Positions 1,941 through 58,879 of a stretch of DNA of 62,635 bases are shown one piece after another. The position numbers and the translations under genes were made by a program. A model generated the notes under the pieces. That model was not told where the DNA came from, ran no database searches, and saw only the letters and a program-made list of their open reading frames with translations. The stretch spans positions 1-62,635 of the IMG/VR virus record IMGVR_UViG_3300048858_000128; one strand, written 5' to 3'. Position 1 is the stretch's first letter; every line of letters begins with the position of its first letter. This stretch comes from a virus (Duplodnaviria > Caudoviricetes).

Positions 1941-2039
1941 CCGCACGTCCTGCGCAGACGCCTGTTCAATAACACGCGCCTCTTATTGCAACAATCCGCC
2001 ATTTCCAGTAATTAGAACGTGACTGCGCAAGACGTGCTG
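1941..2039. promoter_or_regulatory. Divergent late control region (lysis / capsid) with two GCGC-A(N)4-GTGC hairpins
   Basis: CTGCGCAGGACGTGCGG on - (1941-1957) and CTGCGCAAGACGTGCTG on + (2023-2039) flank an AT-rich core. Confidence 0.65.
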
Positions 2040-2066
2040 ATTGTCCTCAACAGGAGATTGGCACTC

Positions 2067-18066: not shown

Positions 18067-18258
18067 TCAATGCCGCACGAGCACCCGCACTTCGTGTTCC
18101 GCGGCGTAGAAGAAGGGCTCCGACCGGTTCATGGACACGCACAGCGGAACCCCGTCCTCGTCGAACAGCACCCAGAACTCCCTCCCCTCCTGCAACTGCG
18201 GGCGGATGTAGCCGATAGTCTCCGGCCACTCACCACCCGGATCATCGCCGTTGATCAA
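18067..18258 (-). CDS. DUF1150-like small protein
   Basis: VLFDEDGVPL...R..FFYAAEHE...VRH C-terminal pattern. Confidence 0.55.
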   Translation of the reverse strand: MINGDDPGGEWPETIGYIRPQLQEGREFWVLFDEDGVPLCVSMNRSEPFFYAAEHEVRVLVRH

Positions 18259-27200: not shown

Positions 27201-27263
27201 GCCGAACAGGTTCAGCGGGTCTTTGAGGTCGAAATCTTTGCCGAGGCCGATGATGATGGGCAT
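18255..27263 (-). CDS. Giant polyvalent / DarB-like virion protein (3002 aa): lysozyme-like, inorganic-pyrophosphatase-like, PBECR-type RNase, JAB-like and PLxRFG regions
   Basis: WRNNNPGNI (~26850-26890); GNYK...IENPAGSER..HYGYIRGT.G.DKDHID (~23430-23900); IDLVWG...GLAKL...WLLTAFE (~22165-22520); HE...HNHP...S.PD (~21580-21870); YFPLSRFG (~20340); AAGGAG RBS. Confidence 0.88.
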   Translation of the reverse strand: MPIIIGLGKDFDLKDPLNLFGDKASSEKAVGINPATSSAASDAAEATAKPVESPSVDAAPRTRPADQSSEVTTEPARESPFDAILKPETPEVNTAGYSTVVAAGKGWTEVVGADGEVIRRKGTRAWRNNNPGNIEYGQFAKGLGAIGTDGRFAVFPTYEAGRRAKESLLFDSKGYRDKTIYQAISRYAPPSENNTDSYASSVATAAGVSIDTPLAELSARQRVAVLDAMERVEGFRPGREIVGGVVRQGETPSSAATAYVDPIVSAPNSRARASSSGSAGAGSIVIDETFKPADGLGVFGTAENPFATMAAEQAAKAAATKEAVANQFEENRNNAFTERHNDDVGQRAAVLEAENPGRYQTIDEDQLPDWQARWEEANRSSGVLGDTGRILKSGVIGIGQSLSSIADTVFSRLPGGETFLKASDDIDRWVLGNTLDKKMENADTAARASVTPAQADADAKNWWDEDRGWFGPAWRDPRSYLRAVGESAPGTVVTMLPGGILARGAYVRAIAGGATQRAAAATAARTATLSGAILEGGMAAGDSAKNVRDRIAALPRDQLMQSDAVRSMIEGGMSEGDAIKAVSEDAASQAFLISGVATGMFGGLGDRALAKIIAEGVGGGVARRIVAGGVRGAVAEGILEEAPQGAAQAISENAAVQRVDPNQSLTEGVGEAVASGIAAGGAMGGAMGGAGGAARPASPESIPGVDPGTAAPAPQPAGPISRAVQRADEAIAVRTPQVAPAAPAPTDGRPEVGATVRIDADGIEPFMGRIDGYEGDEAVVIDSGSGEIYQIPIGNLTQIAKSAETIERENPRDVGPVPIDDSLPEFSNDPALEPLAPIGTEVTSEGLPPRDQQKPATERFPTAPEAGQRVIVDDKNGGRFAATISTWTDGGQEAVVKDEAGREYQVPADSLFISNQTEKQVEADELKRTPPVEREAAEMTPTRRRVGDKTVELPDEKHARLFDLARERFVSKKTLGASQLDMESVDNPELKRLAREFGVTTTALGAMADDYRYRVERAGKEARSKLPVKMPPVNERRLRQWQNELAKQQPEATDRADDLSHWWDVELTAQGRKQVLDQAGVKRSERVMWQHLTPAIRNKLAATRPARDTSEVGADFAVHDAATSPTNDLPEPTQAQKEAGNYKVGRMRLAGLDLSIENPAGSERKGTDSSGKPWSVKMRSHYGYIRGTVGRDKDHIDTFIRPGTPELDDSAPVFVVDQRSANGRFDEHKVMIGFDTEAAARAAYLENYTAGWKGLGDVSPTTMGDFKAWLKSGKTTEPFSKMADGSRDKTTNARFAGERPGTRSSKPRIAKRARRPQSLFDFLAAEGGLRDDGGELAHMGLKRRFVPGRGALVRSGGVPLDKAREAAAQAGYFDHLYGTADDATAKSTVRDLLDLIDQEARGGKAYSLADSDLLRASEEYEAQLAGRADYQRFVREIAATLSDLGGDFAVDEAVLARAAEYMVEEDLSPLDAFDRAVLEDEAKFEASLSDRPPEPVVDGKQSSIPFFGDELAGTQEPVRGLVEEGGDGERNGRSGDAEDSRKSSSPGGLEEPADGLDNDASPIKPSSVALETTSEEEVASGPFGPILRGFEGRWREAALELEKRQTGDAIGALNHPDVGPIDLVWGNAGTNASNGAGLAKLLAWHPEVLGDLQGFINRLHVDKDRSTTKRIQLRDESGNAGIRLDFDGTAKTWLLTAFEKGSRRTERSSRRLSDLWGDQAAPTPPRAEETIAPQSAEVESRKAPALPPAEENGFAEPYEDASATSPDQRRPDPKIRVTRNDLRELDPPARPEGVRLNDWARDSVVTAGKQKGHEYLMAVDADGTVVSYGTAGDPSYTGMNDRLFSAMSNPDRRLVMFHNHPRNGPLSAPDIGLLSMPGVHSVWAFGHNGSSARAALTPVARARITDGGSGTSARELQAALETAAMSPKDVVRAAERARRIDPEGADIAARHIPSLLAARAGIIDMKSDAAYDPAEIKGLKEAIDRAALGLAKEYSDGGKSSARVRRSTDGVGSTRAVEGVGEVRQQLGAGSGKDGLSEGGARDDQAEKRLWKEVDRDFAPAAATKENIVGRVKDALSGKFHDAQPGLLAAVPLNYFPELAGDKIPAISDYLLVKRKMDAYRGKKHDAAAALADRWRKYISLGYRRGYGVGAALVDKSRAAELADLMHEATLAGIDPSLTTDEEKAKSGYQALRKKFTALPPVGRELFQGVRDAYREQADELDELLLDNVRKAQELAAQHAERRYKEELADIAASAIDPVARRRAEENAASKYKAERTKGQWASKARMTRLRQQFESNRVAPPYFPLSRFGDYYVTARRPIRDADGKITGSDVLHFSRHETKADANRVLKEVSREINGAEIETGRMSKNGEIRKVMDPRVVGDIERLLADSGVGDDVRDALYQRWLTTFPDLSMRKRFIHRKGIAGFNKDAFRAFGSAMFHGAHQMGRLKYGLELQENVNRAEEQAKDFEDNTREMALVNELNLRDKWVRNPGGNAFVNYANSAAFIWYMGFSPAAAIVNASQTWMMGVPLLGAKFGIGKSAAALLTASREFAVGRGDLKKGGLSREEKAAMDAFYESGLIDRTQSHDLAAVSETGTTYDPIRAKVMRAASWGFHNVEVFNRSVTALAAYRLARDAGYDHLDAINVAHERTYSTHFDMTNSSRPRIMQRPEFKFTLMFRSYQVNMLYRLFRDVHQAVKGESRQARREAVTQLAGTVGMMGLMAGATGTVGYGLAMAAASLLSGIFGDDDDPMSMEDRFKAGVIRTLGPELGGIFLYGAPGHYLGIDLTARIGMPDLWFRSPDRDLEGKAEWEYYVLNSLGAGVSMIGSMFEAYKVTTDDSSVARGIEIAAPKAVRDLMKTWRFAWDGVTTRAGDEVVAPGELSTSNLISQSLGFTPAKISETYDRASALKNAEAKINDARRSAINSFAKAVEDKDPEARAAAFEEIRKFNTNPAHRPVAITSETLKRSLSTRAKNRVKREDGALIQNEALGQQLRKQLPERVY
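21101..21277 (-). CDS. Nested 58-aa gene in the +1 frame of the giant gene (candidate immunity protein for the JAB-like domain)
   Basis: AAGGAG 7 nt before the ATG; globular-looking MAENQVRGFVDPPTEWAPLEQWKEWEK... while the host frame is a low-complexity linker. Confidence 0.7.
   Translation of the reverse strand: MAENQVRGFVDPPTEWAPLEQWKEWEKSVSNWEPDPERTAYLKEAREMIRQKSASGKK
22048..22076 (+). promoter_or_regulatory. Antisense sigma70-type promoter inside the giant gene
   Basis: TCGACT-N17-TATCGT with extended -10 TG (TGCTATCGT). Confidence 0.55.
22084..22168 (+). ncRNA. Predicted four-way-junction (tRNA-sized) antisense RNA
   Basis: 10-bp closing stem GCTCGTGGCG/CGCCGCGAGC, three internal hairpins, then CCTTTT; begins 7 nt after the -10 element. 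Confidence 0.5.
22595..22771 (-). CDS. Nested 58-aa helical gene in the +1 frame of the giant gene
   Basis: GGAG 10 nt before the ATG; amphipathic ELKSRSEAWLKRAE...EMRRIAGNLRLLAAL; host frame is a disordered linker. Confidence 0.55.
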   Translation of the reverse strand: MENKAVSHSSATSSQELKSRSEAWLKRAETVSETDAQEMRRIAGNLRLLAALKNRQTV

Positions 27264-27264
27264 G
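27208..27264. repeat. Direct repeat copy 1 (5' end of the giant gene)
   Basis: About 50/57 nt identical to 28659-28714. Confidence 0.85.
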
Positions 27265-27356: not shown

Positions 27357-28415
27357 TTAACCCATGGTGTGCTGGGCGTCGTATCGATGGGCTGCCGGTT
27401 TGGGAGCCGAGACGTCAACGCCCGGGGCGTGGAAGGCATACGTGCCATCAGGCTGCATCCCGAAGGCGCGCGCCAGACGACGATTTACCAACACTCGGTT
27501 CCGTCTGAGCCGATTCACGAGCTCCGCTTCGCCGGGGAAACCCTGCGCAACGGGTGCAGGGGGACAACGGGCAAGATCCGCAGCAAGCGCCGATATGTCG
27601 TCCTGAAGCCCATCAAGGAAGCTGGCCGGCCTGAAAGACGAGCGATCGACGTTCGCAACCAGGTCGATCGCCTTCGTCCGATAATTCGCGACGAACGACA
27701 TTAGATCCTGATCGGAGAGCTCGAGCTCCGGGGAAGCCGGGTTGCACGAGATACCCAAAGCCCCGAGATCGCGCATGATCTTCGTTCTGTAAGACTGCGT
27801 GGGGAACTCGGAGAGCTTCTGGCGCAGGCCTTCCAGCCCGAGGAAAGGGATATGAAGCAGACCAAGGCCGCTATCGGTTCTCAACGGCCGGATCTGGACC
27901 AGCAAACTGTCCGCGAGCGGGTACTTGGCGTTGTGGTTGCCCATGACTGGCAGGATGTCCCGGAGATTCCGGAGATTATAGATCAGTTTGCGGGTGCTGC
28001 TGCGCCAGGTGGTGAAGAGGAGCTTCCCCTGCCCGTCCAACGGACCAGCAGATGGGGGGAAGCCATTGCGCCACCTCATGGAGGTGACGGCGGTACCGCG
28101 GTGCTGTTCCATGAATGCAGAGAGGTCTGCCTTGGCCTTGAAAGGCAGGAACTCGTCGGCATCGAGCAGGAACAGGAAGTCAAATTCCCGCTTAAGATCC
28201 AGCTTTTTGAGGAAGTATGCTGCATAGAGCTCTTGAGCAAAGAGGCCGGCAGAAACCCTGAAGACTTCGATACCGTCCCTGGCAAGGCCGCTCAACTGCC
28301 GGTCGCTGTTGTGGTCGATGATGATGATCTTGTCGACGAGCCGCTGGTGGTGAGCAATGAAAGCCGGAAGGTACCCGAATGAGTTCTTCACTTGGACTAC
28401 AACCACCGACCGCAT
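27357..28415 (-). CDS. Glycosyltransferase family 2-like protein (surface-modification moron)
   Basis: FIAHH...VDKIIIIDHNSD, LFLLDADEFL DxD motif, GNH, LLHIP; AT-rich upstream region. Confidence 0.85.
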   Translation of the reverse strand: MRSVVVVQVKNSFGYLPAFIAHHQRLVDKIIIIDHNSDRQLSGLARDGIEVFRVSAGLFAQELYAAYFLKKLDLKREFDFLFLLDADEFLPFKAKADLSAFMEQHRGTAVTSMRWRNGFPPSAGPLDGQGKLLFTTWRSSTRKLIYNLRNLRDILPVMGNHNAKYPLADSLLVQIRPLRTDSGLGLLHIPFLGLEGLRQKLSEFPTQSYRTKIMRDLGALGISCNPASPELELSDQDLMSFVANYRTKAIDLVANVDRSSFRPASFLDGLQDDISALAADLARCPPAPVAQGFPGEAELVNRLRRNRVLVNRRLARAFGMQPDGTYAFHAPGVDVSAPKPAAHRYDAQHTMG

Positions 28416-28658
28416 TTTATCGACCTTCTAAATCAGAAACCGCTGAAATTGCTAATGTATCCGACGTCAAAAAACTGTCAGAAACCACACCATACTGTAG
28501 AATAAGGCACCTCCAAAGCAATAATCGGTTGTACTTACTCACCTACTATTTATTGTAGTTTTCGCTCATCGAATGAGTCTCGGCGGGTGCGCCGGCCGAG
28601 ACCGAGGCCTCGAGGCTATAACTCTCACGCTGCCGTCTGGTTGCAGAGAGTACCGGAT

Positions 28659-28714
28659 AGGTTCAGCGGTTTTTGAGGTCGAAGTCTTTGCCAAGGCCAA
28701 TGATGACAGGCATG
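28659..28714 (-). pseudogene. Frameshifted relic of the giant gene's 5' end (direct repeat copy 2)
   Basis: Encodes MPVIIGLGKDFDLKNR* versus MPIIIGLGKDFDLKDPLNL; mostly synonymous changes plus a 1-nt deletion. Confidence 0.8.
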
Positions 28715-28758
28715 TCCGGTCACTTCTCTCAGGCTAAGAGCGCCCTATCATCATCTCC

Positions 28759-28995
28759 ATGACCGAGATCCCCGCCCCGACCGTCCCGCCCGACGACGAG
28801 AACCGCCACCTGTTCTGCCAGATGGCGATCGAGATCCCGCTGCAGGAGATAATCGCGGCGGCAGTGAATTCAGGATGGGAAGAGACCGAGGTGCTGACGG
28901 CGATCATCGAGGTGGCGGATAACCTCGTGCTGGCGCATGGATCTAACGCGGAGCTGGATGCTCTGATTAAGGCGCTGAGACGTAAACTCGACTAA
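28759..28995 (+). CDS. Hypothetical protein
   Basis: 78-aa helical ORF with normal codon usage. Confidence 0.65.
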   Translation: MTEIPAPTVPPDDENRHLFCQMAIEIPLQEIIAAAVNSGWEETEVLTAIIEVADNLVLAHGSNAELDALIKALRRKLD

Positions 28996-29024
28996 GAGGC
29001 ATGCCGGTAAAGACGGAAAGCGTT

Positions 29025-29390
29025 CTAAATCCATCGACGAGCGAGGCGCACTCCTTGCCTTAACATGCTCCACGTCAGGACCGCCGTTCCGAACACTAGA
29101 ACTGCTATGGGAATAAGCACCATTAGATTTAGCGGGTTCGCCATCAGGGTTGATCCAAAACCCAAAACTATCAAAGTGGCCAACAGCCAGAAATTGGAGA
29201 TCTCAAGAACTTCCCCGTACCAAGTACCTGGGTAACAACGGATGCCAAATTCTTCGTGGGTGCAGCCCGAGAAGTTCAACAATATCACCCACGCCAAAAC
29301 CGACACGACAAAGATGAGCCAGAACCACCCAGCCATTATCGCCGGGACATTCGTGACAATGAACCACGCGTACGCCCTGGCTTCCGACAT
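29025..29390 (-). CDS. Small membrane protein
   Basis: Three TM segments with a Cys-x7-Cys loop; low GC. Confidence 0.65.
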   Translation of the reverse strand: MSEARAYAWFIVTNVPAIMAGWFWLIFVVSVLAWVILLNFSGCTHEEFGIRCYPGTWYGEVLEISNFWLLATLIVLGFGSTLMANPLNLMVLIPIAVLVFGTAVLTWSMLRQGVRLARRWI

Positions 29391-29451
29391 CGCTCTTCCC
29401 TAGCATTGTTCCAGAACAAGTTGAACCACGGACGGGCGGCAGACAATAGCC

Positions 29452-29554
29452 AAAAAGACGCCCGCCGAAGCGGGCCGAGTCGAGGGACAGTCTGGAGTAG
29501 TCTGGAACGCAGCGGAGTGCGAGTGCTGATGGATGGAAGGGCCGCTGCGTCTGT
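29452..29554 (-). ncRNA. Candidate general-stress sRNA 1
   Basis: GGAAC-N17-GTT promoter at 29561-29585; 9-bp hairpin with C-rich loop; GCCCGC-TTCG-GCGGGC plus T5 terminator. Confidence 0.6.
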
Positions 29555-29687
29555 TGTTCGAACTGCGACTGATGACGAACGTTCCCGCGCCGCATGGCGA
29601 TATCCTCTCCGCCCCCTCATTTTTGCGAGGTTTCCTCGTACCCGGATAGGGATATACCTATGCGGGTGATTCTCCGAGGGAGACGGA

Positions 29688-29966
29688 ATGGAATTGGTTG
29701 TATTTGGGTATCAGATCGTACCGGGCCGCGACGAACCCCTGGCCTTCGCGGCTTCCCTTGAGGAATGCCAGCGCGAAGCCCTATACGAGCGTGAAGAGCT
29801 TCGGCGGAATGACCCGGATATCGAACCCCTGGGGGCCATGGCCATATATCGCTTCACTTTGGCTTGGCCCGATACCGACGGGCTACTTGCGGTCTTGAAC
29901 GAGAAGGCTTCGCTGCTCGATGCCATTGTTGTCGACCGTAAGCTTGTGGGTCTGGTGGCCGACTGA
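29688..29966 (+). CDS. Hypothetical protein
   Basis: GAGGGAG RBS; 92 aa. Confidence 0.6.
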   Translation: MELVVFGYQIVPGRDEPLAFAASLEECQREALYEREELRRNDPDIEPLGAMAIYRFTLAWPDTDGLLAVLNEKASLLDAIVVDRKLVGLVAD

Positions 29967-29994
29967 ACGCCGAAAGTTCGTTTTCGCCCCGAGA

Positions 29995-30306
29995 TCACAT
30001 TGGATCAAGCCAGTTCGACAGGAGCACAGGTAGAATTAGTACCATCCCCGCCGGCGACATCATTCCCAGGAGGAGGAAAAAAGCCAGCGACGCAACACCC
30101 CAACACCACCAGAAGATACGAAATCTCCCTGTCGCGAGCCCCCCTGCGCATACCGCCAATGTGAGCAAGAAGAGGGTTAGATTAACTGCAAACCCTTCGA
30201 CCCCCAACACCAGCAGGACATGAGGAATGATGGTCAGAAATATGGCTGTCGCAACAAGAACTGGCGCCTTCGCAGACAATTTCTGCTTCACATTGTCTTC
30301 GGGCAT
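29995..30306 (-). CDS. Small membrane protein
   Basis: Start MPEDN with GAGGA RBS; three to four hydrophobic segments. Confidence 0.6.
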   Translation of the reverse strand: MPEDNVKQKLSAKAPVLVATAIFLTIIPHVLLVLGVEGFAVNLTLFLLTLAVCAGGLATGRFRIFWWCWGVASLAFFLLLGMMSPAGMVLILPVLLSNWLDPM

Positions 30307-30328
30307 GGCCGTGGCGTCATCCTCACTC

Positions 30329-30425
30329 AAAAAGAAGCCCGCCAAAGCGGGCGAGTTTGTTGAACAAAGAAGGCCGACGGGGAACAGGCGGTGGGAACCG
30401 CGCTGCAATCAACCTCCGCGTTCAG
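30329..30425 (-). ncRNA. Candidate general-stress sRNA 2 (or ligD 3' region)
   Basis: GCAAC-N17-GTT at 30432-30456; C-rich body; GCCCGC-TTTG-GCGGGC plus T5 terminator. Confidence 0.45.
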
Positions 30426-30481
30426 TCCTCAAACTACAGCAATTAACGGAAGTTGCGAGTGGCGGGGAATTTTTCCACAAC

Positions 30482-31522
30482 CTAATCAGGCAGTCGGTAG
30501 ATCTCCGAGGTGTCATCGGGATCGCGCAGCCCCTTGAACGACGGATGCCGCAGCTTCCCATCATTCGTCCAAGCCCGATACTCGACCTCGGCAACCAACC
30601 CAGGGGCCGTCAGCACGAGGTTCTTCCCCGGCACCTTCACAGGCGGCACTTTCGTCTTGAGCTTGTCGAGCTGCTTCTTCAGCGACCGGGCCACATCGTG
30701 TTTGAACCCGGTCCCGACACTGCCAACGTATTTGTACCCGTCCCGGTACCGCGCACCGAGGAGGAGGCTCGCGATGGCGCCGGGAAGCGCCGTCGACGGC
30801 TCATAACCGATGATGGCGAAGTTGTCGCTCTGGATGCACTTGATCTTCAGCCAGTCCCCCGTCCGCCCGGAACGGTACGGCCGGTCGCGATGCTTGGCGA
30901 TGATGCCTTCCAGGCCAAGCCGGCAGGCGTGCACGAGGAAATCACCCGGGTCTGCTTCGAGCTCTTCCGAGATCCTGATCGCCCCGCCCTGCTCGTCAAG
31001 TGTATCCTCAAGAAGGTGCCGGCGAGCCTCATATTCCAGCCCGCGCAGATCGTGCCCGTCCAAATAGAGCAGATCGAAGGCGTAGAGGATGGAGTTCCGT
31101 GACGGCAGCTTGCCGCCGGCCTTGCCGGAGGCGCCTAGGGAGTTCTGCAGCAGGCCGAAGTCCGATCGCCCCTGCTCGTCGAGCACCACTGCCTCGCCAT
31201 CGAGGATCATGGTGGTAGGGCCGAGAGCCTTCGCAGCATCGGCGATGGCTGGGAACCGGTGCGTCCAGTCATGGCCGCCGCGGGTGATGATGCGGACGCC
31301 GCCGGGCTCGATATGCACAGCCAGGCGGTAGCCGTCCCACTTGATTTCGTAGGACCATTCATCGCCGTGGGGCGGCTTGCTCTTCAGGAGAGCCAGGCAA
31401 GGCTCGACCCGATCGGGCATGGGATCGAAAGGAAGATGCGGCTGCTTCGGATCGCGCCGCTTGACCGGCCGGCTTTGCAGCGGCGCAGTTCCCCCGTGCA
31501 AAAGCGGCTTGGCTCGCCTCAC
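30482..31522 (-). CDS. ligD: ATP-dependent DNA ligase, LigD ligase domain (NHEJ type)
   Basis: EIKWDGYR, ILDGE, AFDLL, EGIIAK, YRSGR..DWLKIK, LRHPSFKGLR. Confidence 0.92.
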   Translation of the reverse strand: MRRAKPLLHGGTAPLQSRPVKRRDPKQPHLPFDPMPDRVEPCLALLKSKPPHGDEWSYEIKWDGYRLAVHIEPGGVRIITRGGHDWTHRFPAIADAAKALGPTTMILDGEAVVLDEQGRSDFGLLQNSLGASGKAGGKLPSRNSILYAFDLLYLDGHDLRGLEYEARRHLLEDTLDEQGGAIRISEELEADPGDFLVHACRLGLEGIIAKHRDRPYRSGRTGDWLKIKCIQSDNFAIIGYEPSTALPGAIASLLLGARYRDGYKYVGSVGTGFKHDVARSLKKQLDKLKTKVPPVKVPGKNLVLTAPGLVAEVEYRAWTNDGKLRHPSFKGLRDPDDTSEIYRLPD

Positions 31523-31815
31523 GATGACATGCGACGGTGGAAGCCGTCCAGAAGTTCCACGGCCCGATACAGCACTTCACCGGAAGACGGTGAATAGTCC
31601 GCCGCGATTTCCTGATGCTCCCGGTCGATCTTTTCCGCCAAACGTTCAATGTCCTTGGCGGCTTTGTCGTGGACCGCGCGCCAGATCAAGGCCGTGTAAT
31701 GTAGGCTTCCGGCGACCCGGACTAGGACCCGATCGCGCTGTTCGACAGTCAGTTCTGAAAAAGCCGAATCACCTTTCGCGATCAACTCGGCTTTTGTGCT
31801 TATCTCACCAGCCAT
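31519..31815 (-). CDS. Hypothetical protein upstream of ligD
   Basis: Start MAGEIST with GGAG RBS; overlaps the ligD start. Confidence 0.65.
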   Translation of the reverse strand: MAGEISTKAELIAKGDSAFSELTVEQRDRVLVRVAGSLHYTALIWRAVHDKAAKDIERLAEKIDREHQEIAADYSPSSGEVLYRAVELLDGFHRRMSS

Positions 31816-31849
31816 ATGCAAAACTCCTTGATTGAGTGATTCGCGACTC

Positions 31850-31874
31850 AATCGAGAAACGGCGCGATAGTTCC
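31850..31874 (-). promoter_or_regulatory. EcfG/RpoE2-type promoter for the ligD operon
   Basis: GGAAC-N17-ATT. Confidence 0.55.
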
Positions 31875-31896
31875 GAGGGGCGACTGAACAACCCCG

Positions 31897-31930
31897 TTGA
31901 CTCTGCAGCTGACCAGAACATAATTAGAAC
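31897..31930 (+). promoter_or_regulatory. LexA-repressed sigma70 promoter (alphaproteobacterial SOS box)
   Basis: GAAC-ATAATTA-GAAC (31916-31930) overlapping -10 CATAAT; -35 TTGACT at 31897. Confidence 0.85.
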
Positions 31931-32007
31931 GTTGGACCGCGACCAAGGCGGTTTATCCACAATCGATCCGCAGCCTTATGAACACGCTCCGGCGTGAAGG
32001 AGAAGTC

Positions 32008-32352
32008 ATGTCTAAGGGCGACAATGGCCTGAGGCATCTGGGGGAGCCCATCTGCGCCAAGTGCGGCGGCGGGCTGATCTATGAAGGCGACGCGCCGGCC
32101 CCAGACGACATCATCGAGTGCGAGAACGCGAAGTGCGGGCGCAAAGGCACCTATGCCGAGGTGACGGCCGACTGCGAAGCGATCTACGCGCAGTTCCAGG
32201 ATTGGTATCTTCAGCAATCCGCTCTGGGCGGGCCGACAATGAAGGAGATCCGAAGATGGAAGCCCAAGGGCAAGCGCAAGTTCACGATGAAAATCGTGGG
32301 CGCTGGTAAGGCCGGTGACCTCAAGCGGGATTTCAAAGCAATCGAGCTGTGA
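32008..32352 (+). CDS. Zinc-finger hypothetical protein (SOS operon gene 1)
   Basis: AAGGAG RBS; CAKC...CENAKC. Confidence 0.7.
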   Translation: MSKGDNGLRHLGEPICAKCGGGLIYEGDAPAPDDIIECENAKCGRKGTYAEVTADCEAIYAQFQDWYLQQSALGGPTMKEIRRWKPKGKRKFTMKIVGAGKAGDLKRDFKAIEL

Positions 32353-32651
32353 CATCTGCTTGGAAGAGGAAATACCGTTGGGTGCGGACGTGGCCAGGCG
32401 AAACGGGCCTAAATGGTAAGCTTCATGAGGACTATGTCGGCTTTGACGGGAAAACGTATATCGGGAGGATCTATCTCGACCAGCAGACCCTGAAGGCCGG
32501 GAAGTGGCGCTGGGCAGGTGGAATGCCGGAGAAGTGCCGCATGATGATGATGCCGAATAGCGGATGGCTTCCGACGGCTGCCGAGGCGGCGAAACAGGTC
32601 GAGGACTATTGGGATGCTATGCTTGCAAACATCGGGATACACAAGAAATGA
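32349..32651 (+). CDS. Hypothetical protein (SOS operon gene 2)
   Basis: GTGA overlap; Trp-rich YRWVRTWPG...IGRIY...WRW. Confidence 0.75.
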   Translation: MTSAWKRKYRWVRTWPGETGLNGKLHEDYVGFDGKTYIGRIYLDQQTLKAGKWRWAGGMPEKCRMMMMPNSGWLPTAAEAAKQVEDYWDAMLANIGIHKK

Positions 32652-32836
32652 GCGATGAACGCACTGCCACTCACCCCGCTGCGCCGGTGCATTTCGAGCA
32701 TTGGTGCGAGCATCCTGGCTGCAAAGAGTGGGGCGGGTTCGGCTTTGAGCGCGACAAGAGCAAAACGGATTGGTTTTGTTTCGAACATCGGCCGGCCCGC
32801 TACAGGGGTCTTACCTTTGGAGGAACCGACCAATAA
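32648..32836 (+). CDS. Small Cys/His protein (SOS operon gene 3)
   Basis: ATGA overlap; HWCEHPGCKEWG...WFCFEH. Confidence 0.7.
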   Translation: MSDERTATHPAAPVHFEHWCEHPGCKEWGGFGFERDKSKTDWFCFEHRPARYRGLTFGGTDQ

Positions 32837-32991
32837 ATGCAAAAAAGCCCCGCCGCTCTGTTTGGGCCGCGAGGCTTGAGGTCCGCCATCGATTGTGCAG
32901 TGACAAGCTACCACAACCCATCGGTTGGGAAAAGCCAAAAATTACCTGGGCATTCTGGCAAGCAGTCTCGCGATAACGTGGGCCGCTGACG

Positions 32992-33738
32992 TCAGGCGGG
33001 AAACGCCACAACCTTCGAAGGTGAGGAATCGATCCCGCCCATCAGCATGCGGTATTCCGCCTCCGGCCTGCCATACGCGTCATGCGCGAACTCTTCGAGC
33101 GCCGCCCTATCTCGGACGATGACCCTCCCTCGTACGGAGCGGATCAAGCCATTTCCCTCAAGCACGTGAAGTGAACTGGTGACACTTGGCCGACGCACGG
33201 ACAACATGATCGATATGTAGTCGTGAGTGAGCTCGATCTCGTCTCCGTCTATTCGATCGTGGCACATCAGAATCCAGCGCGCCAAGCGTTCGTCCACGTG
33301 GTGGACCGCATTTGACAAGCCGGTAAAGGAAACCTGGGTTGCAAGAGTCTGTGCATACCGCATCATGAGATTGGCGAGCGCCGGATTAGCATCCATCGCG
33401 GCTTCGAACAAAGCGATGCCGATACGGTGGCCGCGGCCGGAGACTTGCATGACGATCTCATGGCCTTGGGTTGACGGGCCGACAAGGGCCTGAACCGGCG
33501 CAAACCCGTCACGGCCAAACAAACCTGCCTCGACCTTGTTACCCTCCGGTGAGACCGCAATCACGGAGCCAATCCCAGACTCAGGAAAGTACACATGCTT
33601 GATCGGAGCGTCCAACCGGGCGAGTGAAAACGTCCTTGGGAGCTCCACGCGCTCCAGTCCGGCGAAGAACTGCAGATCTTCATCTGTCATCAGAGACAGG
33701 AGGCGGTTGTGAAGGGACGACTTATGTGGGGCGGGCAT
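32992..33738 (-). CDS. Crp/Fnr-family transcriptional regulator
   Basis: NRLL, VYFPESG, ERLARWILMCHDR, LTHDYISIMLSVRRPSVT HTH. Confidence 0.92.
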   Translation of the reverse strand: MPAPHKSSLHNRLLSLMTDEDLQFFAGLERVELPRTFSLARLDAPIKHVYFPESGIGSVIAVSPEGNKVEAGLFGRDGFAPVQALVGPSTQGHEIVMQVSGRGHRIGIALFEAAMDANPALANLMMRYAQTLATQVSFTGLSNAVHHVDERLARWILMCHDRIDGDEIELTHDYISIMLSVRRPSVTSSLHVLEGNGLIRSVRGRVIVRDRAALEEFAHDAYGRPEAEYRMLMGGIDSSPSKVVAFPA

Positions 33739-33898
33739 AGCTCTCTCCTCTATGGGGCAAGAGCGATGAATGTTCTCCTAGCCGTCCGCGCCCGAAGAAA
33801 CTGCAAAACGATAATGTACTATAACCGCTGATAGTGGCCTCGATGTGTTCAGGCCCGGTTCAGAAACCGCTTTAACGGGAGCAGGCTTTCCAGGCGCG

Positions 33899-34027
33899 TT
33901 ACCAGCCGATCGCTACCAGGATGAGGGCGAGTGTTTCTTGGTGGCCGAAGACGAGAACGGCCGTGAGCAAGGCGATCGCGACGAGCGCCGCGATCACAGC
34001 GCAGCTGAAGCGGAGCACGTCCGTCAT
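33899..34027 (-). CDS. 42-aa membrane peptide
   Basis: MTDVLRFSCAVIAALVAIALL..., start overlaps the upstream stop. Confidence 0.5.
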   Translation of the reverse strand: MTDVLRFSCAVIAALVAIALLTAVLVFGHQETLALILVAIGW

Positions 34028-34269
34028 CAGTCTTCTTCCTTGCGCTCGTAGTAGCGCATGAAGTCCGTGATCGCATTGAACGGATGCTTGCGCATCCCGC
34101 CGTACTTCGGAGCCATCGCTTTGCCGAATGGCTCAAGATCGATGGTTTCATCCCTCACGTGTTTGGCGAAAGCGAACCAGAATTTGGCAAATTGCTCCGG
34201 ATCTTCAGCGAGAGCCTTCGCCAAGTCATCGGGACTGACATCAAGGTCAATACGGACGGTGGCCTTCAC
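34027..34269 (-). CDS. Hypothetical protein
   Basis: Coupled ORF. Confidence 0.6.
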   Translation of the reverse strand: MKATVRIDLDVSPDDLAKALAEDPEQFAKFWFAFAKHVRDETIDLEPFGKAMAPKYGGMRKHPFNAITDFMRYYERKEED

Positions 34270-34475
34270 GCCTGCGCCTCCGCAACGCCTTCCTTCAGCA
34301 GCTCGTCGGGCTGAACCTCGTGGATCAGGAGATCCTGCCCGCTGTGGACGTAGAAGGTGTTCTCCCGGTTCTTCTCGACGCGATGGACCGTGCCGAGCTC
34401 GCCGGTTACGGGATTGACCGGCGTCACATCGACGGGCCAGCCATGGTTTGCTGCTACTTTGACTGTGGTGGTCAT
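34266..34475 (-). CDS. Hypothetical protein
   Basis: GAGGA RBS; MTTTVKV.ANHGWPV. Confidence 0.7.
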   Translation of the reverse strand: MTTTVKVAANHGWPVDVTPVNPVTGELGTVHRVEKNRENTFYVHSGQDLLIHEVQPDELLKEGVAEAQA

Positions 34476-34492
34476 TTTCAGATCCTCAATGA

Positions 34493-34520
34493 AAAATGCC
34501 CGCCGGACGGATCCAGCGGG
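34493..34520 (-). terminator. Rho-independent terminator
   Basis: GCCCGCTGGA-loop-TCCGGCGGGC followed by ATTTTT on the - strand. Confidence 0.6.
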
Positions 34521-34547
34521 CGCCCTTGGGAGGGGATTATTACCGGC

Positions 34548-34871
34548 TTAGCAGCGCCGCCTGACGTCGATGAAACTGAGGCCGTGGGTGTCGTAGCTCT
34601 CGGCGTATTTCGGGGCAAAGCTGCCGAACGTTCGCGAACTGATCGGCCGCGTGTCGTCCGCCTGGGCGCGGTGAACGATGGCGATGTGCTGTTCGTGACC
34701 GACCGCATCGACGAGGAAGCCGACGTCGATCGGCGAGAGATACGCCGGCTCCATCACCGCATAAGGATTGATCTCGAGGCGGGCGACGGCGGACGCCGGC
34801 ATGATGGTGAAGGCGAGTGTGCAGGCTAGGAAACCTAGACTGAGGCAGAGAATGCGGGGAAATCGGACCAT
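34548..34871 (-). CDS. Hypothetical protein with signal-peptide-like N-terminus
   Basis: Hydrophobic N-terminus ending PASA. Confidence 0.5.
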   Translation of the reverse strand: MVRFPRILCLSLGFLACTLAFTIMPASAVARLEINPYAVMEPAYLSPIDVGFLVDAVGHEQHIAIVHRAQADDTRPISSRTFGSFAPKYAESYDTHGLSFIDVRRRC

Positions 34872-34977
34872 GAACGTGCCTTTTGGATGGGTGGGGCGCC
34901 GTGGCAGTCACGCACTCGACTGCATCTGCTAATTCGCACACGGCGCCCCTTGCTCTCGGGGTGTTATGGGGCTCGAC

Positions 34978-35054
34978 TGGTTGCGCTGGCAGGATTCGAA
35001 CCTGCGACCTTCAGGTTATGAGCCTATCGAGCTACCGGGCTGCTCCACAGCGCT
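34978..35054 (-). tRNA. tRNA-Met(CAT), initiator type
   Basis: 77-nt cloverleaf AGCGCTG...CTCATAA...GGTTCGAATCC...ACCA; 1:72 mismatch and A11-U24 pair typical of fMet. Confidence 0.9.
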
Positions 35055-35198
35055 TCTCAGTCGTCATGGTCGAGGTGATGGGGTCGTAGCGCGTTTGTCA
35101 ACGGGCGCTGCGTTCTTCCACCGCGTGACGCGGCGGGCTGAAAATCCGAGCACTAATGCGCTCGTAGTCTTGGGGAAATAGTTAGGCGCGACGCGAGG

Positions 35199-35390
35199 TC
35201 AAGTGCTGGGGAGCAGCGCCTTCTCGATGTGGCGTTCGCCGTCCCCCGTGAGAGGGACAAGCGTTATCTTCTGGTCCTTCGCGAACTCGAATCCGAGTTT
35301 CACGATACGCCCGCTCTTATGGCCGACGAACAGCCGGCCAACGCCCGGGATCTCGACCCACTGCCCTACTTTCACATCGAGGTGCAGCAT
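35199..35390 (-). CDS. CsrA-like small protein
   Basis: 63 aa, ML.L..KVGQ.V.I...R+.V....G..VKLGFE...DQKI parallels the CsrA beta pattern; adjacent to the scaffold gene. Confidence 0.6.
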   Translation of the reverse strand: MLHLDVKVGQWVEIPGVGRLFVGHKSGRIVKLGFEFAKDQKITLVPLTGDGERHIEKALLPST

Positions 35391-35396
35391 CGGGCC

Positions 35397-36365
35397 TCAC
35401 TGCGCCAGGTAGCGGTCGCGCGCGTCGGGCGACATCTTCGCCAGTTCGCGTTCGAACGATACCGAGTCCTTGGCAGCCAGCCGATCGAGGTGGGCGAACT
35501 CGCCGCCGTCGTCAGCATCGGTTATGTCGGCGGCCGGCACGGTGCCGAGGTTGGGAGGCATCTCGGGCCGGGCCTTGGCGTCGGGCTTTGCGGCTGCCGC
35601 TTTGCCGCCAGTCTTCTTGCCCGCATCCGCATCAGGCTTTGGGGTTGGCGTCTCGATGCCGAACGCCGCCTTCACCTGCTCGGCGATGTTCGCGTGCGCC
35701 TTGGCGAGGATCTTTGGATTGAGCGGGTTGACCGCTTCGACCTGAAGCTTGCGCACCTCGGCATCGAGCATGCTCGCTAGCACTGGCGACTTATACTGCT
35801 GATGCTGGCCGATGAAGCTGGAAACATCATCCTGCCAAGTCTCCAAGGCGGTCTCGCGCGCCACCTCGGCCTTGATCTGCTGCCGCTCAATCGTTCTGAA
35901 CTCGGCGTCCAGCGGCTTGAGCTGCGCGCGAAGCTCTTCGGCGGTGAGCTCGCCCTCGTCGAACTTCTTCGCAATCTCGTCGCGCTTGCTGTCGATCGCC
36001 GCAAGCTTCTCGTCCAGATCGCCCGGGACGATCCATTTGGGCGCTCGCTCCTCTGGCTCCTGGGCGTCGGCAGCGTCGGCGGCCGGCGTCTCCTTCGCGG
36101 CGACCGCGGCTGCAGCTGCGGCGGCATCAGCTGCAGCTTTGGCCGTCGCGTCATCGGCAGCGCCGATGTCGTCGTCGCCGTCATCATCACCCTCGCCGTC
36201 ATCACCGGCGTCGCCATCCTTATCGGTGCCGGCAGCATCGCCGCCGGCAGCGTCATCGTCACCAGCGTCGGCTTCATCGTCGCCGGCGTCTTCCTCCTCG
36301 AGGAGGCCTAGACGCTCCTCTTCGGTCAGCAATGCTAATTCTGCTTCACTAAATTTCGGGTCCAT
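35397..36365 (-). CDS. Capsid scaffolding protein
   Basis: Acidic disordered N-terminus, coiled coil, FAHLDRL...ERELAKMS C-terminus; after the portal gene. Confidence 0.75.
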   Translation of the reverse strand: MDPKFSEAELALLTEEERLGLLEEEDAGDDEADAGDDDAAGGDAAGTDKDGDAGDDGEGDDDGDDDIGAADDATAKAAADAAAAAAAVAAKETPAADAADAQEPEERAPKWIVPGDLDEKLAAIDSKRDEIAKKFDEGELTAEELRAQLKPLDAEFRTIERQQIKAEVARETALETWQDDVSSFIGQHQQYKSPVLASMLDAEVRKLQVEAVNPLNPKILAKAHANIAEQVKAAFGIETPTPKPDADAGKKTGGKAAAAKPDAKARPEMPPNLGTVPAADITDADDGGEFAHLDRLAAKDSVSFERELAKMSPDARDRYLAQ

Positions 36366-36377: not shown

Positions 36378-38633
36378 TTACTGTCCCAGCCCTGGCGAGG
36401 CTTGGGGATTTGCCTCCGGCGCGGGAGCCGCCGGTTGGGCTGGTTGCTGCTGCTGCGCCTGTGCCTGTTCCGCGGCGGCCTGTTGGGCCACTGCGGCAAG
36501 CGTCTCTTCCTGCTCGGTGCGGGACTGGTAGCCCGCCTCGTGCAGCATGTGGTCGGCCACGTCGGCGACGACGGGGATCGCTGCCACGGCTCCGGCTGCT
36601 TCGACTGCCGTTTTCTGGGTCTGCATGTTGACGTTGGAGATGCGGGCCATGAGCTCTTTCGCCTGCGCTTCGCTCTTGGCAGCGTCGGCAATCAGCTTCC
36701 GGAGCTCGGCCATTGCCGTCTCCATCTGCATCTTCTGCTGTGCCGCACTCACTTGCTGGCGCGCGATCTGCTCGGGGTCGTTCTCGTCCGCATCCGGATC
36801 CGTCATGCCGGTGACCTGGCGGATACGCTTCACCAGTTCGTCGCGCTGCGGGATGTCCATGCTCTCGACGACGAGATCGAGCGACACGAGGGCAACCTGC
36901 GGCGCGACCGGCGCCAGCTGGCCGATGAGCTCCATGAGCTCGGACACCTGCGCCTGGCGGACGCTGGCGCGCCAGTCCTCTTCGGTGATGACATAGTCCG
37001 CCTTGGTGCGAACGATGTCGTTGTCAGGCATGCCATCGTTGACCGTGACATACTCCGGCGCGCCGCGGCTGTTGGTGATGCGGAACTTCTTCTCCTCGGT
37101 CATGAACTGCTCCATGATCGAGAGCTTCTTTTCGCCGCGGATCTGGGATGCCAGGCGGTGATTGTCGAACAGGCCGGCGGTCGCCAACGCGCCTTGGCTC
37201 TGGCGGGCCTCGATAGCCTTGCCTGAAACCGCGTTCGTTGTGCGGCCGAGGTTCTCGTCCGTCACCCCTCCGACCTGCTGCACCATCTGGATGTCGCGCG
37301 ACATCAGTTCGAGGTGGTACTGCGATAGCTCGCGGTCGCTGTCGATTTTGAGCTCATAGCCCTTCTTTTTGACGATCACCGCATCGGGGCGGGCCGCCTC
37401 TTCGACGAGATCATTGACGTCCTCGACCGCGCCTTCATCCATGATGATCTTGCTCGTCGACAGGATATGCAGGGCCTTGCTGGCGCGCTTGTTAATGTCG
37501 ATCTGAATATCGCGGATGTTGCGCACCATGCCGTAAGGCATGCCATCACGGCCGCGACGCTTGTTCCAGATCGGTGTGAACGGGAAGCGGTTATGCCGGT
37601 ATGGCGACGGCGACAGCCACAGCAGCCCGGCCGTGGTGAACAGCGCGACATACATGCGCATCATCGGCTTGCTGACGACTTCGGCTTCTTCGGCTTTCAC
37701 CGAATCCTCATGCCCCGGGGAGAACTCGTCATAGATCTCGCCGGAGAACATCCCGCCCTTCAGCTTGTTGACCGTGACGGGCATCTTGAACCACATCTCG
37801 AAGATGCGCAGGCGTTGCCGCCTATAGCCGGTGACATGGTCGCTGACATGGCCGCTGTCGCCCCTGCCCTGGCTCTCGGCCTCGTGCTGATCCATGACTT
37901 CATCGCCATAGGCGTCGGTCATGGTGAAATTGTCGGCGTCATCTACCGAGCGCCGGAGCAGCGCCTTTCGTTTCGGGAAGATGGCGCATGCCACGTCGAT
38001 ATCGACCCATTTGGAGCGGAAGATGTAGCGAGCGTCTTCCAGATCGAGGCGGATGGCGGTGCTGTCCCACAGCATGTTCCGCCAGCTCTCGTACCGGCTG
38101 TAGATCGGCTCGCCTTCGTCGTCGCCCTGATAGCCGTCTTCCATCCATCCGATGCCGACCTTTGCGGCATCTTCGAACGCGCGGCTCACTTCGAACGGGT
38201 CGCGGTTGACGTCGGAGAGGTATTTCAGGAGCTCGCTCTTGCGCTGCGCCGGCTTTCCATCCTCCTTCCGGCGCGGGAGCACCTTGAAATCGGTGCGAGC
38301 GCGCTTTTCGGAGCCGACAACCCAATCGATCGTGGTGGCGGTGACGTTGAAGACAAGCGGGATCTGGCCGCGCTCCTTCAGGGTCTGCGCATCCTCCTCG
38401 GTCCACTGGATGCTGTCGTACATGTCCTCGTCGATCGCCTGCTCGCGGCGATTGGGCGCCTGGCGGTCGATTTCGCGGGTGGCGACGTCAAGGAGACGGT
38501 GGTGCAGCCGCACCATGTTGTTGCTGTCGAGCGAGTTGCCGGCAACCTGACGCCCCGGTACCGGCTTATCCGGTATCGGTGACTTGTATGGCTTCTTGCG
38601 AACAGAGCCGTCGTCAGCGTTGAGGTCAAACAT
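36378..38633 (-). CDS. Portal protein (P22-like)
   Basis: 751 aa, QWTEED..LKERGQ.PL.FN, PYGMVR...Q..INKR.SK, SGKAIEARQ.QG. Confidence 0.92.
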   Translation of the reverse strand: MFDLNADDGSVRKKPYKSPIPDKPVPGRQVAGNSLDSNNMVRLHHRLLDVATREIDRQAPNRREQAIDEDMYDSIQWTEEDAQTLKERGQIPLVFNVTATTIDWVVGSEKRARTDFKVLPRRKEDGKPAQRKSELLKYLSDVNRDPFEVSRAFEDAAKVGIGWMEDGYQGDDEGEPIYSRYESWRNMLWDSTAIRLDLEDARYIFRSKWVDIDVACAIFPKRKALLRRSVDDADNFTMTDAYGDEVMDQHEAESQGRGDSGHVSDHVTGYRRQRLRIFEMWFKMPVTVNKLKGGMFSGEIYDEFSPGHEDSVKAEEAEVVSKPMMRMYVALFTTAGLLWLSPSPYRHNRFPFTPIWNKRRGRDGMPYGMVRNIRDIQIDINKRASKALHILSTSKIIMDEGAVEDVNDLVEEAARPDAVIVKKKGYELKIDSDRELSQYHLELMSRDIQMVQQVGGVTDENLGRTTNAVSGKAIEARQSQGALATAGLFDNHRLASQIRGEKKLSIMEQFMTEEKKFRITNSRGAPEYVTVNDGMPDNDIVRTKADYVITEEDWRASVRQAQVSELMELIGQLAPVAPQVALVSLDLVVESMDIPQRDELVKRIRQVTGMTDPDADENDPEQIARQQVSAAQQKMQMETAMAELRKLIADAAKSEAQAKELMARISNVNMQTQKTAVEAAGAVAAIPVVADVADHMLHEAGYQSRTEQEETLAAVAQQAAAEQAQAQQQQPAQPAAPAPEANPQASPGLGQ

Positions 38634-57982: not shown

Positions 57983-58196
57983 CAAGGCCTCCGTGGGTGT
58001 CGAAAAGCGAACCTGCCAGAAGTTGAATGGTTCCCCAGTGACGCTGCCAGCAGCGCCGCAAACAAAAAAGAAGGGCCTACCGAAGCAGACCCTTCCTCAA
58101 TGGGAAGCCGACTCTTCATGGGCAATGGAGTTGCCGACTTCCGCGCTCAAACAAGGATCGGAGAAATCCGTTCCCCTACCACCCGAAAATCACCCA

Positions 58197-58352
58197 TTAG
58201 GCCTTGAAGGAATCAAACCCGCCCATCCAGATGTAAATGCGCTCCGGCGTCTCGTCGTCGAGATAAGGGCAGGATCGCCTGCTTTTTCCGAGGGCGGCCG
58301 CCTGCTTCCCTTCCTCGAATATCTTCTTTCGCTGCTCGTCCGTCATAACCAT
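58197..58352 (-). CDS. Rmf/CrpP-like 51-aa protein, copy 1
   Basis: FEEGKQAAALGKSRRSCPY...WMGGF; GGAAC-N17-GTT promoter at 58360-58384; missed by the ORF track. Confidence 0.75.
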   Translation of the reverse strand: MVMTDEQRKKIFEEGKQAAALGKSRRSCPYLDDETPERIYIWMGGFDSFKA

Positions 58353-58405
58353 GCCGCAGAACTAGAATCGGCAGCTCGCGTTCCAACCCCGCCGCCCGCA
58401 AATAT
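58210..58405. repeat. ~190-bp diverged direct repeat (partner at about 58893-59088)
   Basis: Shared blocks such as CCTCGAATATCTTCTTTCGCTGCTCGTC and CCGCCCGCAAATATT. Confidence 0.9.
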
Positions 58406-58641
58406 TAGGGGCGATAACGCTTGTCCCGTTTCCGTCGAGAAGACCTGACCCGTAAATAGGCCGCTATCCCGACGAGGGTTCCAAGAGCAGTCCAGTAGAT
58501 TGTTGGTGTGTTCGTTCCCGCAGCCGCAAACGAGCCGACAATCAGTCCCAGGCCAACGTAAAAAACCAAAGAAAGCCTGCTGCATAGCAAGACTTCGAGG
58601 AAAATCCGGATGAATGTCCTGACAAACTCCACCAAGGTCAA
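58405..58641 (-). CDS. Small membrane protein
   Basis: Two TM segments and a basic tail. Confidence 0.5.
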   Translation of the reverse strand: MTLVEFVRTFIRIFLEVLLCSRLSLVFYVGLGLIVGSFAAAGTNTPTIYWTALGTLVGIAAYLRVRSSRRKRDKRYRP

Positions 58642-58879
58642 AATCTCCGACGTGGGTTTAACCGCTCAACGCAATGACGTTATCGGTGAAACCTTTGCAA
58701 AGGATTTCGGCACCCCATCACCCCAACTGAAATTGCATGAAGCGCACGCGGGTCCGCCTTCGCGTGCGCTCCATGGCCTAAGCAAAACATCCGGCTCCGA
58801 TGGTGTGGGCGTCTCCGAGTATATTAGCAATTCACGAATGATATCCGGTGATGGCGGCACGCCGCCCGAGCTGTACACG

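Follow-up and report, generated by a model that had tools for sequence, protein, structure and literature searches.

Proteins of the CsrA fold typically read hairpin loops. CsrA itself binds loops bearing GGA, the repeat of CsrB has the form CAGGA(U/A/C)G, and activation has been described for ymdA, where CsrA opens a hairpin that sequesters the Shine-Dalgarno (SD) sequence, and for flhDC, where CsrA protects the 5' end (PMC7652899). Genes for CsrA have also been reported in the phages DC1, GP4 and others, including phages of hosts without csrA (PMC7366521), the csrA of JC1 has been labelled a moron (PMC9144972), and a 2026 paper on a Klebsiella phage merely lists a 'CsrA-like regulator' (PMC12989515). 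In the consulted passages of PMC9144972, PMC7366521 and PMC12989515 no phage csrA is given a tested function or a proposed target. The present text concerns a CsrA-like open reading frame (ORF) of 63 amino acids (aa) in a complete 62,635-bp IMG/VR provirus record (IMGVR_UViG_3300048858_000128, the whole of which is called the window), together with a small hairpin in the leaders of late genes. A gene so far listed as a moron or a 'CsrA-like regulator' is, judged by gene order, a fixed core gene of its phage group, and it is physically linked to a conserved leader hairpin of late mRNAs. A literature search, which left aside the founding Bcep22 paper and the supplements (including the phage csrA list of PMC7366521), returned no description of the core status of the gene, of the leader element or of the link between them, and a term search of the Atu_ph08 paper (PMC6630229) found no mention of CsrA or hairpins.

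A diverged CsrA-like gene

35199-35390, minus strand: 63-aa CsrA-like ORF with an ATG start, its limits the same as in the original prediction

The ORF starts 6 nt past the stop codon of an upstream 322-aa gene and has a GAGG 4 nt before its ATG. It differs from its orthologue in the related record L005 at 10 nucleotides, all of them third-position and all synonymous, and because every difference is synonymous it is taken to be a true coding gene; on this comparison it is a real gene under purifying selection.

Homology to CsrA emerges when the small ORFs at the same syntenic position are considered together. CsrA is the top Pfam match at E<=0.012 in 12 of 15 such ORFs, five of which pass the 27-bit Pfam cut-off (DC1 with 39, Parlo with 30.4, Itty13 and Gervaise with 29.8 each and UAM5 with 29.1), and the three ORFs with no Pfam match are those of the window, of the prophage of Rhizobium sp. 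Root1203 and of Mwe-JY07. Sub-threshold Pfam CsrA matches are found in seven of eight database relatives of the window's own clade. Profile A2, built from this clade, has RsmE as its best match in the PDB (E=0.002), and profile A3, built from the wider syntenic set, matches RsmE at E=1.1e-8 and E. coli CsrA at E=2.3e-4; hhalign of A2 against genuine Rhizobiaceae CsrA gives a probability of 74.7% (E=2.6e-5). The profile alignment to E. coli CsrA and RsmE is gapless across residues 1-47, and CsrA residue numbering can therefore be used for the 63-aa protein.

The AlphaFold2 model of the protein has a pLDDT (predicted local distance difference test) of 78.4, and the program DSSP assigns to it only three strands and a helix at residues 50-59, the CsrA fold having five beta strands and a C-terminal helix that is extended as in the swapped dimer. 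Foldseek ranks 1-15 are all chains of CsrA, RsmA or RsmE, with template modelling (TM) scores of 0.45-0.79, and VIA-align gives Z scores of 4.7-6.0 for seven CsrA-family entries against 2.4 for the first unrelated entry, with a root mean square deviation of 1.3 A over 46 residues to RsmE. Complexes of CsrA with CesT and with FliW are among the PDB fold matches. A homodimer prediction scored 0.30, against a mark of 0.42, and is not used as evidence. Profile searches and predicted model thus agree, and a CsrA fold is supported for the 63-aa protein, which is best filed as a diverged member of a phage CsrA-like lineage and not as a canonical CsrA.

The protein has in common with CsrA, RsmA and RsmE (PF02599) its length class, the gapless alignment, the predicted fold, the residues L2, L4, G9 and G27 and a basic residue 7, where R7 is replaced by K. 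It differs in falling below all curated thresholds and in its beta5 region, where V40-S-V-H-R44-E-E-I47 of CsrA corresponds to Q-K-I-T-L-V-P-L. It is moreover a gene of a phage morphogenesis operon, in a host family mostly without CsrA, and its candidate targets mostly lack GGA. The proposals first made from the letters of the window, that the ORF follows the CsrA pattern and that the canonical R.E motif is missing (H43-R44-E45-E46 reads T-L-V-P), are thus borne out, and the structural comparison with the CsrA fold that had been suggested as a check points to CsrA in profiles, AlphaFold2 model, Foldseek and VIA-align alike. The description of the protein as phage-specific, in the sense of new, has to be given up as relatives are already annotated 'CsrA-like regulator'.

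L4 and R44 have been named as particularly critical for RNA binding by CsrA (PMC7652899). L4 is present, as it is in 9 of 11 rows of A2, and R44 is lost, which counts against RNA binding because this residue is described as particularly critical. A basic residue at position 43/44 is found in DC1, Gervaise, UAM5, Skulduggery, PEp14, Parlo, Itty13 (K), PBC5 and POI1126, and there is none in the window, Atu_ph08 and P0003. The RNA-contacting beta1 edge of CsrA (L2, L4 and the basic residue 7) is among the best-conserved parts of the protein across the group.

Some orthologues show a weak N-terminal similarity to FlbT (PF07378), an alphaproteobacterial regulator of flagellin translation, namely those of Skulduggery (L065, E=0.0021), UAM5 (L066, 0.17) and Gervaise (L011, 0.24). 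FlbT is about twice as long, and Pfam gave no FlbT match for the window protein. These matches hint that FlbT and CsrA may share an N-terminal module.

Synteny and hosts

36378-38633, minus strand: portal gene, identified by DNA similarity to genes annotated as portal in PBC5, Atu_ph08, Itty13, Bcep22 and others
35397-36365, minus strand: gene for a 322-aa acidic, coiled-coil-like protein (PHROG 8246, E=1.8e-74)

The window phage belongs among the Bcep22/PBC5-like podoviruses. The phrog_8246 protein, probably a scaffold judging from its position and composition, serves as a marker of this group and has tblastn matches in 66 phage records; between phages of four host classes the identity of these scaffold-like proteins is only 28-45%. 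The order portal, phrog_8246 gene, small ORF is shared by the window and every one of the 12 annotated relatives inspected (DC1, PBC5, Atu_ph08, Itty13, Gervaise, Mwe-JY07, POI1126, Parlo, PEp14, LASTA, Skulduggery and UAM5), in which the small ORF is 56-79 aa long and is named 'CsrA-like regulator' in six records and 'carbon storage regulator' in one. On this gene order the csrA-like gene is a syntenic core gene of the 66-record group.

The 'CsrA-like regulator' of Lessievirus type (PHROG 8397), represented by Bcep22 gp54, DC1 gp46, JC1 gp47, Itty13 gp22, Parlo gp62 and the proteins of PEp14, LASTA and Skulduggery, is therefore, by synteny, orthologous to the 63-aa protein, with which it shares 21-31% identity, and the same hairpin follows its gene. 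The rhizobial clade is more diverged, its genes are annotated 'hypothetical', and its capsid gene has moved so that the hairpin after the csrA-like gene is orphaned.

The original prediction had also held that rhizobia generally lack CsrA, and this agrees with the sample searched, in which CsrA above the Pfam cut-off occurs in 1 of 121 genomes of the family of Rhizobium sp. Root1203. In three host genomes PF02599-like matches were prophage genes alone in two, and there were none in the third.

A conserved hairpin in the leaders of late genes

A search for the core GCGC-N4/5-GUGC with two further pairs, followed by the covariance model R1, recovered six copies of the hairpin in the window.

1941-1957, minus strand: CUGCGC AGGAC GUGCGG, in the endolysin leader, R1 24.9 bits
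2023-2039, plus strand: CUGCGC AAGAC GUGCUG, with one U.U mismatch, in the major capsid leader, R1 16.5 bits
10884-10902, plus strand: GUCGCGC ACGAA GUGCGAC, in the leader of a virion structural protein, R1 23.5 bits
15153-15168, minus strand: CCGCGC CGAA GUGCGG, an orphan with no SD or ATG close downstream, R1 20.5 bits
27286-27301, minus strand: CCGCGC AUCA GUGCGG, in the leader of the DarB-like gene, R1 25.4 bits
35147-35164, minus strand: CGAGCGC AUUA GUGCUCG followed by GAUUUUC, 34 nt after the TGA of the csrA-like gene, R1 19.4 bits

The genes that these leaders precede are the following.

1388-1918, minus strand: endolysin gene (phrog_5867, E=2.4e-47)
2067-3167, plus strand: major capsid gene (phrog_334, E=1.1e-130)
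10924-12054, plus strand: virion structural protein gene (phrog_8003, E=3.7e-149)
18255-27263, minus strand: DarB-like gene (3002 aa), named after its PBC5 and Atu_ph08 counterparts

Five hairpins had been predicted, all with loops starting with A; the family is real and conserved, its count is six, and the loop rule holds for five of them and fails for the CGAA copy at 15153-15168. The late hairpin with an AGGAC loop and the copy expected about 35 nt after the csrA-like stop codon were both found. All six copies lie on the strand of their flanking genes and within the late half, and no R1 match of at least 13 bits occurs in the early half of the window (39-62.6 kb). The bare motif is not above chance in the window (10 against 8.15 expected; 8 against 6.0 +/- 2.5). 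It is enriched over the reversed pattern in rhizobial phages (19 v 9, 15 v 4, 20 v 5 and 18 v 5) and is not in DC1 (25 v 52). Exact and near-exact repeat searches with the post-gene hairpin returned no second copy in the window, and the family became visible only on comparison with relatives; it is accordingly because of conservation at orthologous sites in relatives, and not because of bare counts, that it is judged real.

In most members of the group the hairpin directly downstream of the csrA-like gene belongs to the major capsid leader. In the rhizobial clade (the window, PBC5, Atu_ph08 and the Root1203 prophage) the capsid gene has been relocated, and the post-gene hairpin therefore stands at the former site of the capsid leader. 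Its orthologues read CGAGCGC ACGA GUGCUCG (L005), GGGCGC AAGA GUGCCC (L006/L007, Root1203 prophage) and CGGCGC AUGA GUGCCG (L008, a Shinella metagenome-assembled genome), so that the upper stem does not vary and the lower pairs covary, around loops of the form A-N-N-A. The DarB-like gene is likewise preceded by orthologous hairpins in G001, G002, PBC5, Atu_ph08 and L009, and in the capsid leaders of G002, PBC5 and Atu_ph08 the hairpin stands behind a sigma-70-like TTGCAA-17 nt-TATTTA.

The capsid leader carries the hairpin in phages of alpha-, beta- and gamma-proteobacteria and of a cyanobacterium. In several phages the gap between the csrA-like and capsid genes contains GATAAT or AATAAT, then 11-17 nt, then the hairpin, which reads C[CU]GCGC AAGAC GUGCGG in Parlo, LASTA and Itty13, CUGCGC AUGAC GUGCGG in PEp14 and CUGCGC UGGAU GUGCGG in Skulduggery, with the variants GGCGC AGGAG GUGCC in DC1 and ACGC AGGA GUGU in Gervaise and UAM5. 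GCGC AUGAC GUGC stands just before the capsid genes of the Ochrobactrum phage POI1126 and the Microcystis phage Mwe-JY07. Among phages outside the training set of R1, matches at most about 60 nt upstream of the capsid start were obtained in Mwe-JY07 (14.9 bits), DC1 (13.8), POI1126 (12.5) and Gervaise (11.5). Boxes resembling a -10 element lie about 9-19 nt upstream of the hairpins, and it is by these boxes alone that transcription starts are placed.

Across 20 aligned copies no variation is seen in the upper pairs GCGC/GUGC, four in number with the G.U pair among them, or in the last loop base (A12), and the loop begins with A in 18 of the 20. Five pair types (CG, UA, GC, UG and AU) occur at the two lower positions, and 100% of cells pair, partly by construction since the copies were chosen by a filter that demands the two lower pairs. 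At the gathering score, a scan of the whole window with Rfam 15 matched a tRNA alone and gave no match for the hairpin. The hairpins are a real, conserved leader element that is apparently undescribed.

The capsid and endolysin genes diverge from an intergenic region of about 150 bp (window 1900-2070) that holds two outward-facing hairpins of the family. The post-gene hairpin was also considered as a plain intrinsic terminator and rejected, as it is followed by a run of only four U and was missed by a terminator scan; it may have a role at the 3' end.

Loops containing GGA (AGGAG, AGGA and AGGAC) occur in phages of Burkholderia, Ralstonia and rhizobia, hosts mostly without CsrA, and AAGAC or AUGAC loops in phages of Klebsiella, Serratia, Erwinia and P. 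aeruginosa, the exception being the P. fluorescens phage Skulduggery (UGGAU). This pattern, seen in a small sample (L001, L010, L011, L062-L066 and the window), could reflect avoidance of host CsrA.

Alternative pairing in the leaders

A segment that adjoins or covers the SD and start codon of the leader is complementary to the hairpin's loop and 3' arm. At 10896-10922, for example, GUGCGACCUC is complementary to GAGGUUGCAC, and the 3' arm of the 10884-10902 hairpin also forms a 10-bp helix with GAGGUUGCAC beside the AUG. In folds computed for 17 leaders of 11 phages, the small hairpin is absent from every minimum-free-energy structure; its 3' arm pairs downstream instead, and this structure is 0.2-13.3 kcal/mol more stable than the best fold in which the hairpin is forced. 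In this fold the SD is paired over at least 3 of 4 nt in 12 of the 17 leaders and the AUG over at least 2 of 3 nt in 12, and 11 of the 17 reach z <= -2 against 100 mononucleotide shuffles. Forcing the hairpin frees mainly the AUG, which is then paired over at least 2 nt in 5 of 17 leaders as against 12 of 17. Two copies in the window (35147-35164 and 15153-15168) have no SD/AUG partner yet retain the hairpin, with covarying stems.

Proposed function and rival explanations

Tentatively, the 63-aa protein is held most likely to bind RNA and to control late mRNAs of its own phage post-transcriptionally, with the leader hairpin as the best candidate target; the pairing of this protein with this hairpin is plausible but unproven, and is put forward with some reserve. 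The proposal draws on the loop-reading habit of CsrA-fold proteins, on gene and hairpin both being core to the group and mostly adjacent, and on the near absence of CsrA from hosts of the window's clade. The protein is small, beta-rich, presumably a strand-swapped dimer and made from the packaging/portal/scaffold operon, and it is proposed that it would capture the small 5' hairpin GCGC-ANNA(N)-GUGC with its invariant G.U pair, which opens the capsid, endolysin, virion-protein and DarB-like transcripts. The captured hairpin would keep the start region open and/or shield the 5' end, and the output of late proteins would rise, in parallel to the activation of ymdA and flhDC by CsrA. What is inferred in this scheme is that the protein dimerises, that it binds RNA, that the hairpin is its target and that the effect is activation and not repression. 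The C-G-closed loops of 5 nt, CAGGACG, CAAGACG, CAUGACG and CAGGAGG, resemble the CsrB repeat and are one base away from it. The phage leaders show the anatomies of both the ymdA and the flhDC leaders, an SD-sequestering helix and a hairpin near the 5' end, and differ from them in that the ymdA and flhDC sites carry GGA and are bound by a canonical CsrA with R44 (PMC7652899), whereas the phage element is a stem of 6-7 bp with a loop of 4-5 nt and is a candidate site.

In a wider and rather doubtful form of the proposal, the podovirus supergroup, with members in alpha-, beta- and gamma-proteobacteria and a cyanobacterium, would own a two-part Csr-like system composed of the core protein, produced along with portal and scaffold, and a universal switch between GCGC-ANGA(C)-GUGC and the SD/AUG helix in the leaders of capsid, lysis, virion and DarB-like mRNAs. 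A relaxed reading of non-GGA loops would time or boost late translation without host CsrA, and rhizobial specificity would have drifted further (R44 lost; loops AUGA, AUCA and AUUA).

A number of results weigh against a Csr-like reading of the hairpin by this protein. The 63-aa protein alone has no Pfam match at E<=10 and no NCBIfam match (TIGR00202/NF002469) in a scan in which genuine Rhizobiaceae CsrA scored 90.7 bits, and its match to the PHROG 8397 'CsrA-like regulator' is weak (E=0.011, 16.7 bits, residues 1-39). Its sequence shows the substitutions R6 to V, V40 to Q, R44 to L and E45/E46 to V/P. Most of the loops lack GGA (AUUA, AUCA, AAGAC, ACGAA and AUGA), loop sequences are already explained by complementarity to SD or AUG (UGGAU to AUCUGG in Skulduggery, AUGACGUG to CACGUCAU in POI1126), and the residues of beta5 (R, K, T, H or V at 43/44), compared by eye with the loop sequence in 14 phages, showed no correspondence to it. 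With the hairpin forced, at least 3 of the 4 SD nucleotides still pair in 11 of 17 leaders, by way of a short local helix. The best R1 match outside the training set, CCGCGC AGCA GUGCGG with 23.2 bits (L054 12229-12248; DC1 about 32128-32147, minus strand), lies antisense inside a structural gene and is either chance or an unrecognised element, and the complete pairing of the 20 aligned copies is to be discounted in so far as the filter built it in. The co-occurrence of gene and motif, which had been suggested as a check, is perfect in every member inspected; these form one clade with no member lacking either partner, so there is no contrast and the co-occurrence is not independent evidence. 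Lastly, virion proteomics of JC1 detected one peptide of its CsrA (PMC9144972). Overall, the original prediction of a Csr-like late switch is partly supported.

Several of these results fit an account in which the hairpins work on their own in cis or are recognised by another factor, the CsrA-like protein acting elsewhere, for example on GGA-containing SD regions or host mRNAs, which is also assumed when such genes are described as morons. This account is possible, if on the whole somewhat unlikely. The 5' stem-loop would slow decay and take part in a kinetic switch, the hairpin forming first and the RNA later refolding to the SD/AUG helix. The alternative pairing of all 17 leaders needs no protein, and the account is favoured further by loops that follow the SD/AUG complement, by the lack of visible covariation between protein and loop, by the loss of R44 from the window protein, by the presence of GGAG or AGGA in the SD regions and by the treatment of the Lessievirus csrA as a moron (PMC9144972). 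It sits less well with an upper stem and G.U pair that are identical across four host classes, beyond the needs of a generic stabiliser, with the copies at 35147-35164 and 15153-15168 that keep the hairpin in spite of lacking an SD/AUG partner, and with a core gene that, unlike a moron, is syntenic in 12 of 12 relatives. It is very improbable that the element of 16-19 nt is instead a site in double-stranded DNA, either an operator or a promoter-proximal site, on which a repressor or late activator would act. The element does lie just past the -10-like boxes, where it overlaps the expected transcription start, and the sigma-70-like capsid promoters would need silencing in the lysogen, but its arms are complementary only with G.U pairs and always on the sense strand, their spacing is 4 or 5 nt, the lower stem covaries with pairing kept, and two copies are found where transcription units end (3') and not at promoters. 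Because of this sense-strand-only wobble, the arm spacing and the covarying lower pairs, an RNA (or at least single-stranded) structure is favoured.

A further explanation, which is distinctly unlikely, concerns the protein and not the hairpin: the CsrA fold may have been kept and RNA binding lost, the protein serving in capsid assembly, as a minor virion or ejected component, or with a protein partner as CsrA does with FliW or CesT. The position of its gene between the scaffold-like gene and, ancestrally, the capsid gene would suit such a role, as would the absence of R44 and of the E45/E46 pair, the CsrA-CesT and CsrA-FliW complexes among the fold matches and the JC1 peptide, which came from CsCl-purified virions; this single peptide was called inconclusive by the JC1 authors (PMC9144972). 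Continued RNA binding is more in keeping with the conservation of the RNA-contacting beta1 edge and with the several orthologues that retain R at 43/44 and pass the CsrA Pfam cut-off.

If the protein does read the leader hairpin, these phages would carry a Csr circuit of their own that operates even where the host has no CsrA, the specificity of the CsrA fold would be seen to have evolved away from GGA, and late genes would come under post-transcriptional control in podoviruses with ordinary, sigma-70-looking capsid promoters. Should the link to the protein fail, the leader switch would remain an undescribed conserved RNA element of these phages. Short conserved stem-loops at the starts of phage transcripts are also known from lambdoid N-boxB and HK022 put, which are read in the nascent RNA and act on elongation; no sign of antitermination was seen here, where no search was made for an N-like or Q-like gene.

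Neighbouring genes and minor observations

On the minus strand the order is portal, phrog_8246 gene, 63-aa ORF, two hairpins, tRNA-Met, accessory island and DarB-like gene. The variable island (27357-35054), which separates the csrA-like gene from the DarB-like gene, is composed of the tRNA-Met, small ORFs and accessory genes, and PBC5 and Atu_ph08 have other genes at the equivalent site.

35118-35136, minus strand: a further hairpin, unrelated to the first, CCGCCGCG UCA CGCGGUGG, preceding a TTGACA box and the tRNA-Met
34978-35054, minus strand: tRNA-Met (CAU), first gene of the island (ARAGORN; Rfam tRNA 56.7 bits)
32992-33738, in the island: Crp-type helix-turn-helix regulator (Pfam match)
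30482-31522, in the island: ATP-dependent DNA ligase (Pfam match)
27357-28415, in the island: family-2 glycosyltransferase (Pfam match)

A TTGACAAA box (35060-35110, minus strand) is conserved past the post-gene hairpins in the window, G001 and G002 and is likely to be the -35 element of the downstream tRNA/island transcript. Within the island, positions 28665-28714 (minus strand) repeat 47 nt from the 5' end of the DarB-like gene (27218-27264) at 87% identity. Upstream of the glycosyltransferase gene this copy begins a 16-codon stub, MPVIIGLGKDFDLKNR, and it has the appearance of a scar left by an insertion in which the start of the DarB-like gene was duplicated. In the early region there is a direct repeat of 228 nt with 80% identity, at 58179-58406 and 58862-59089, with a spacing of 683 nt.

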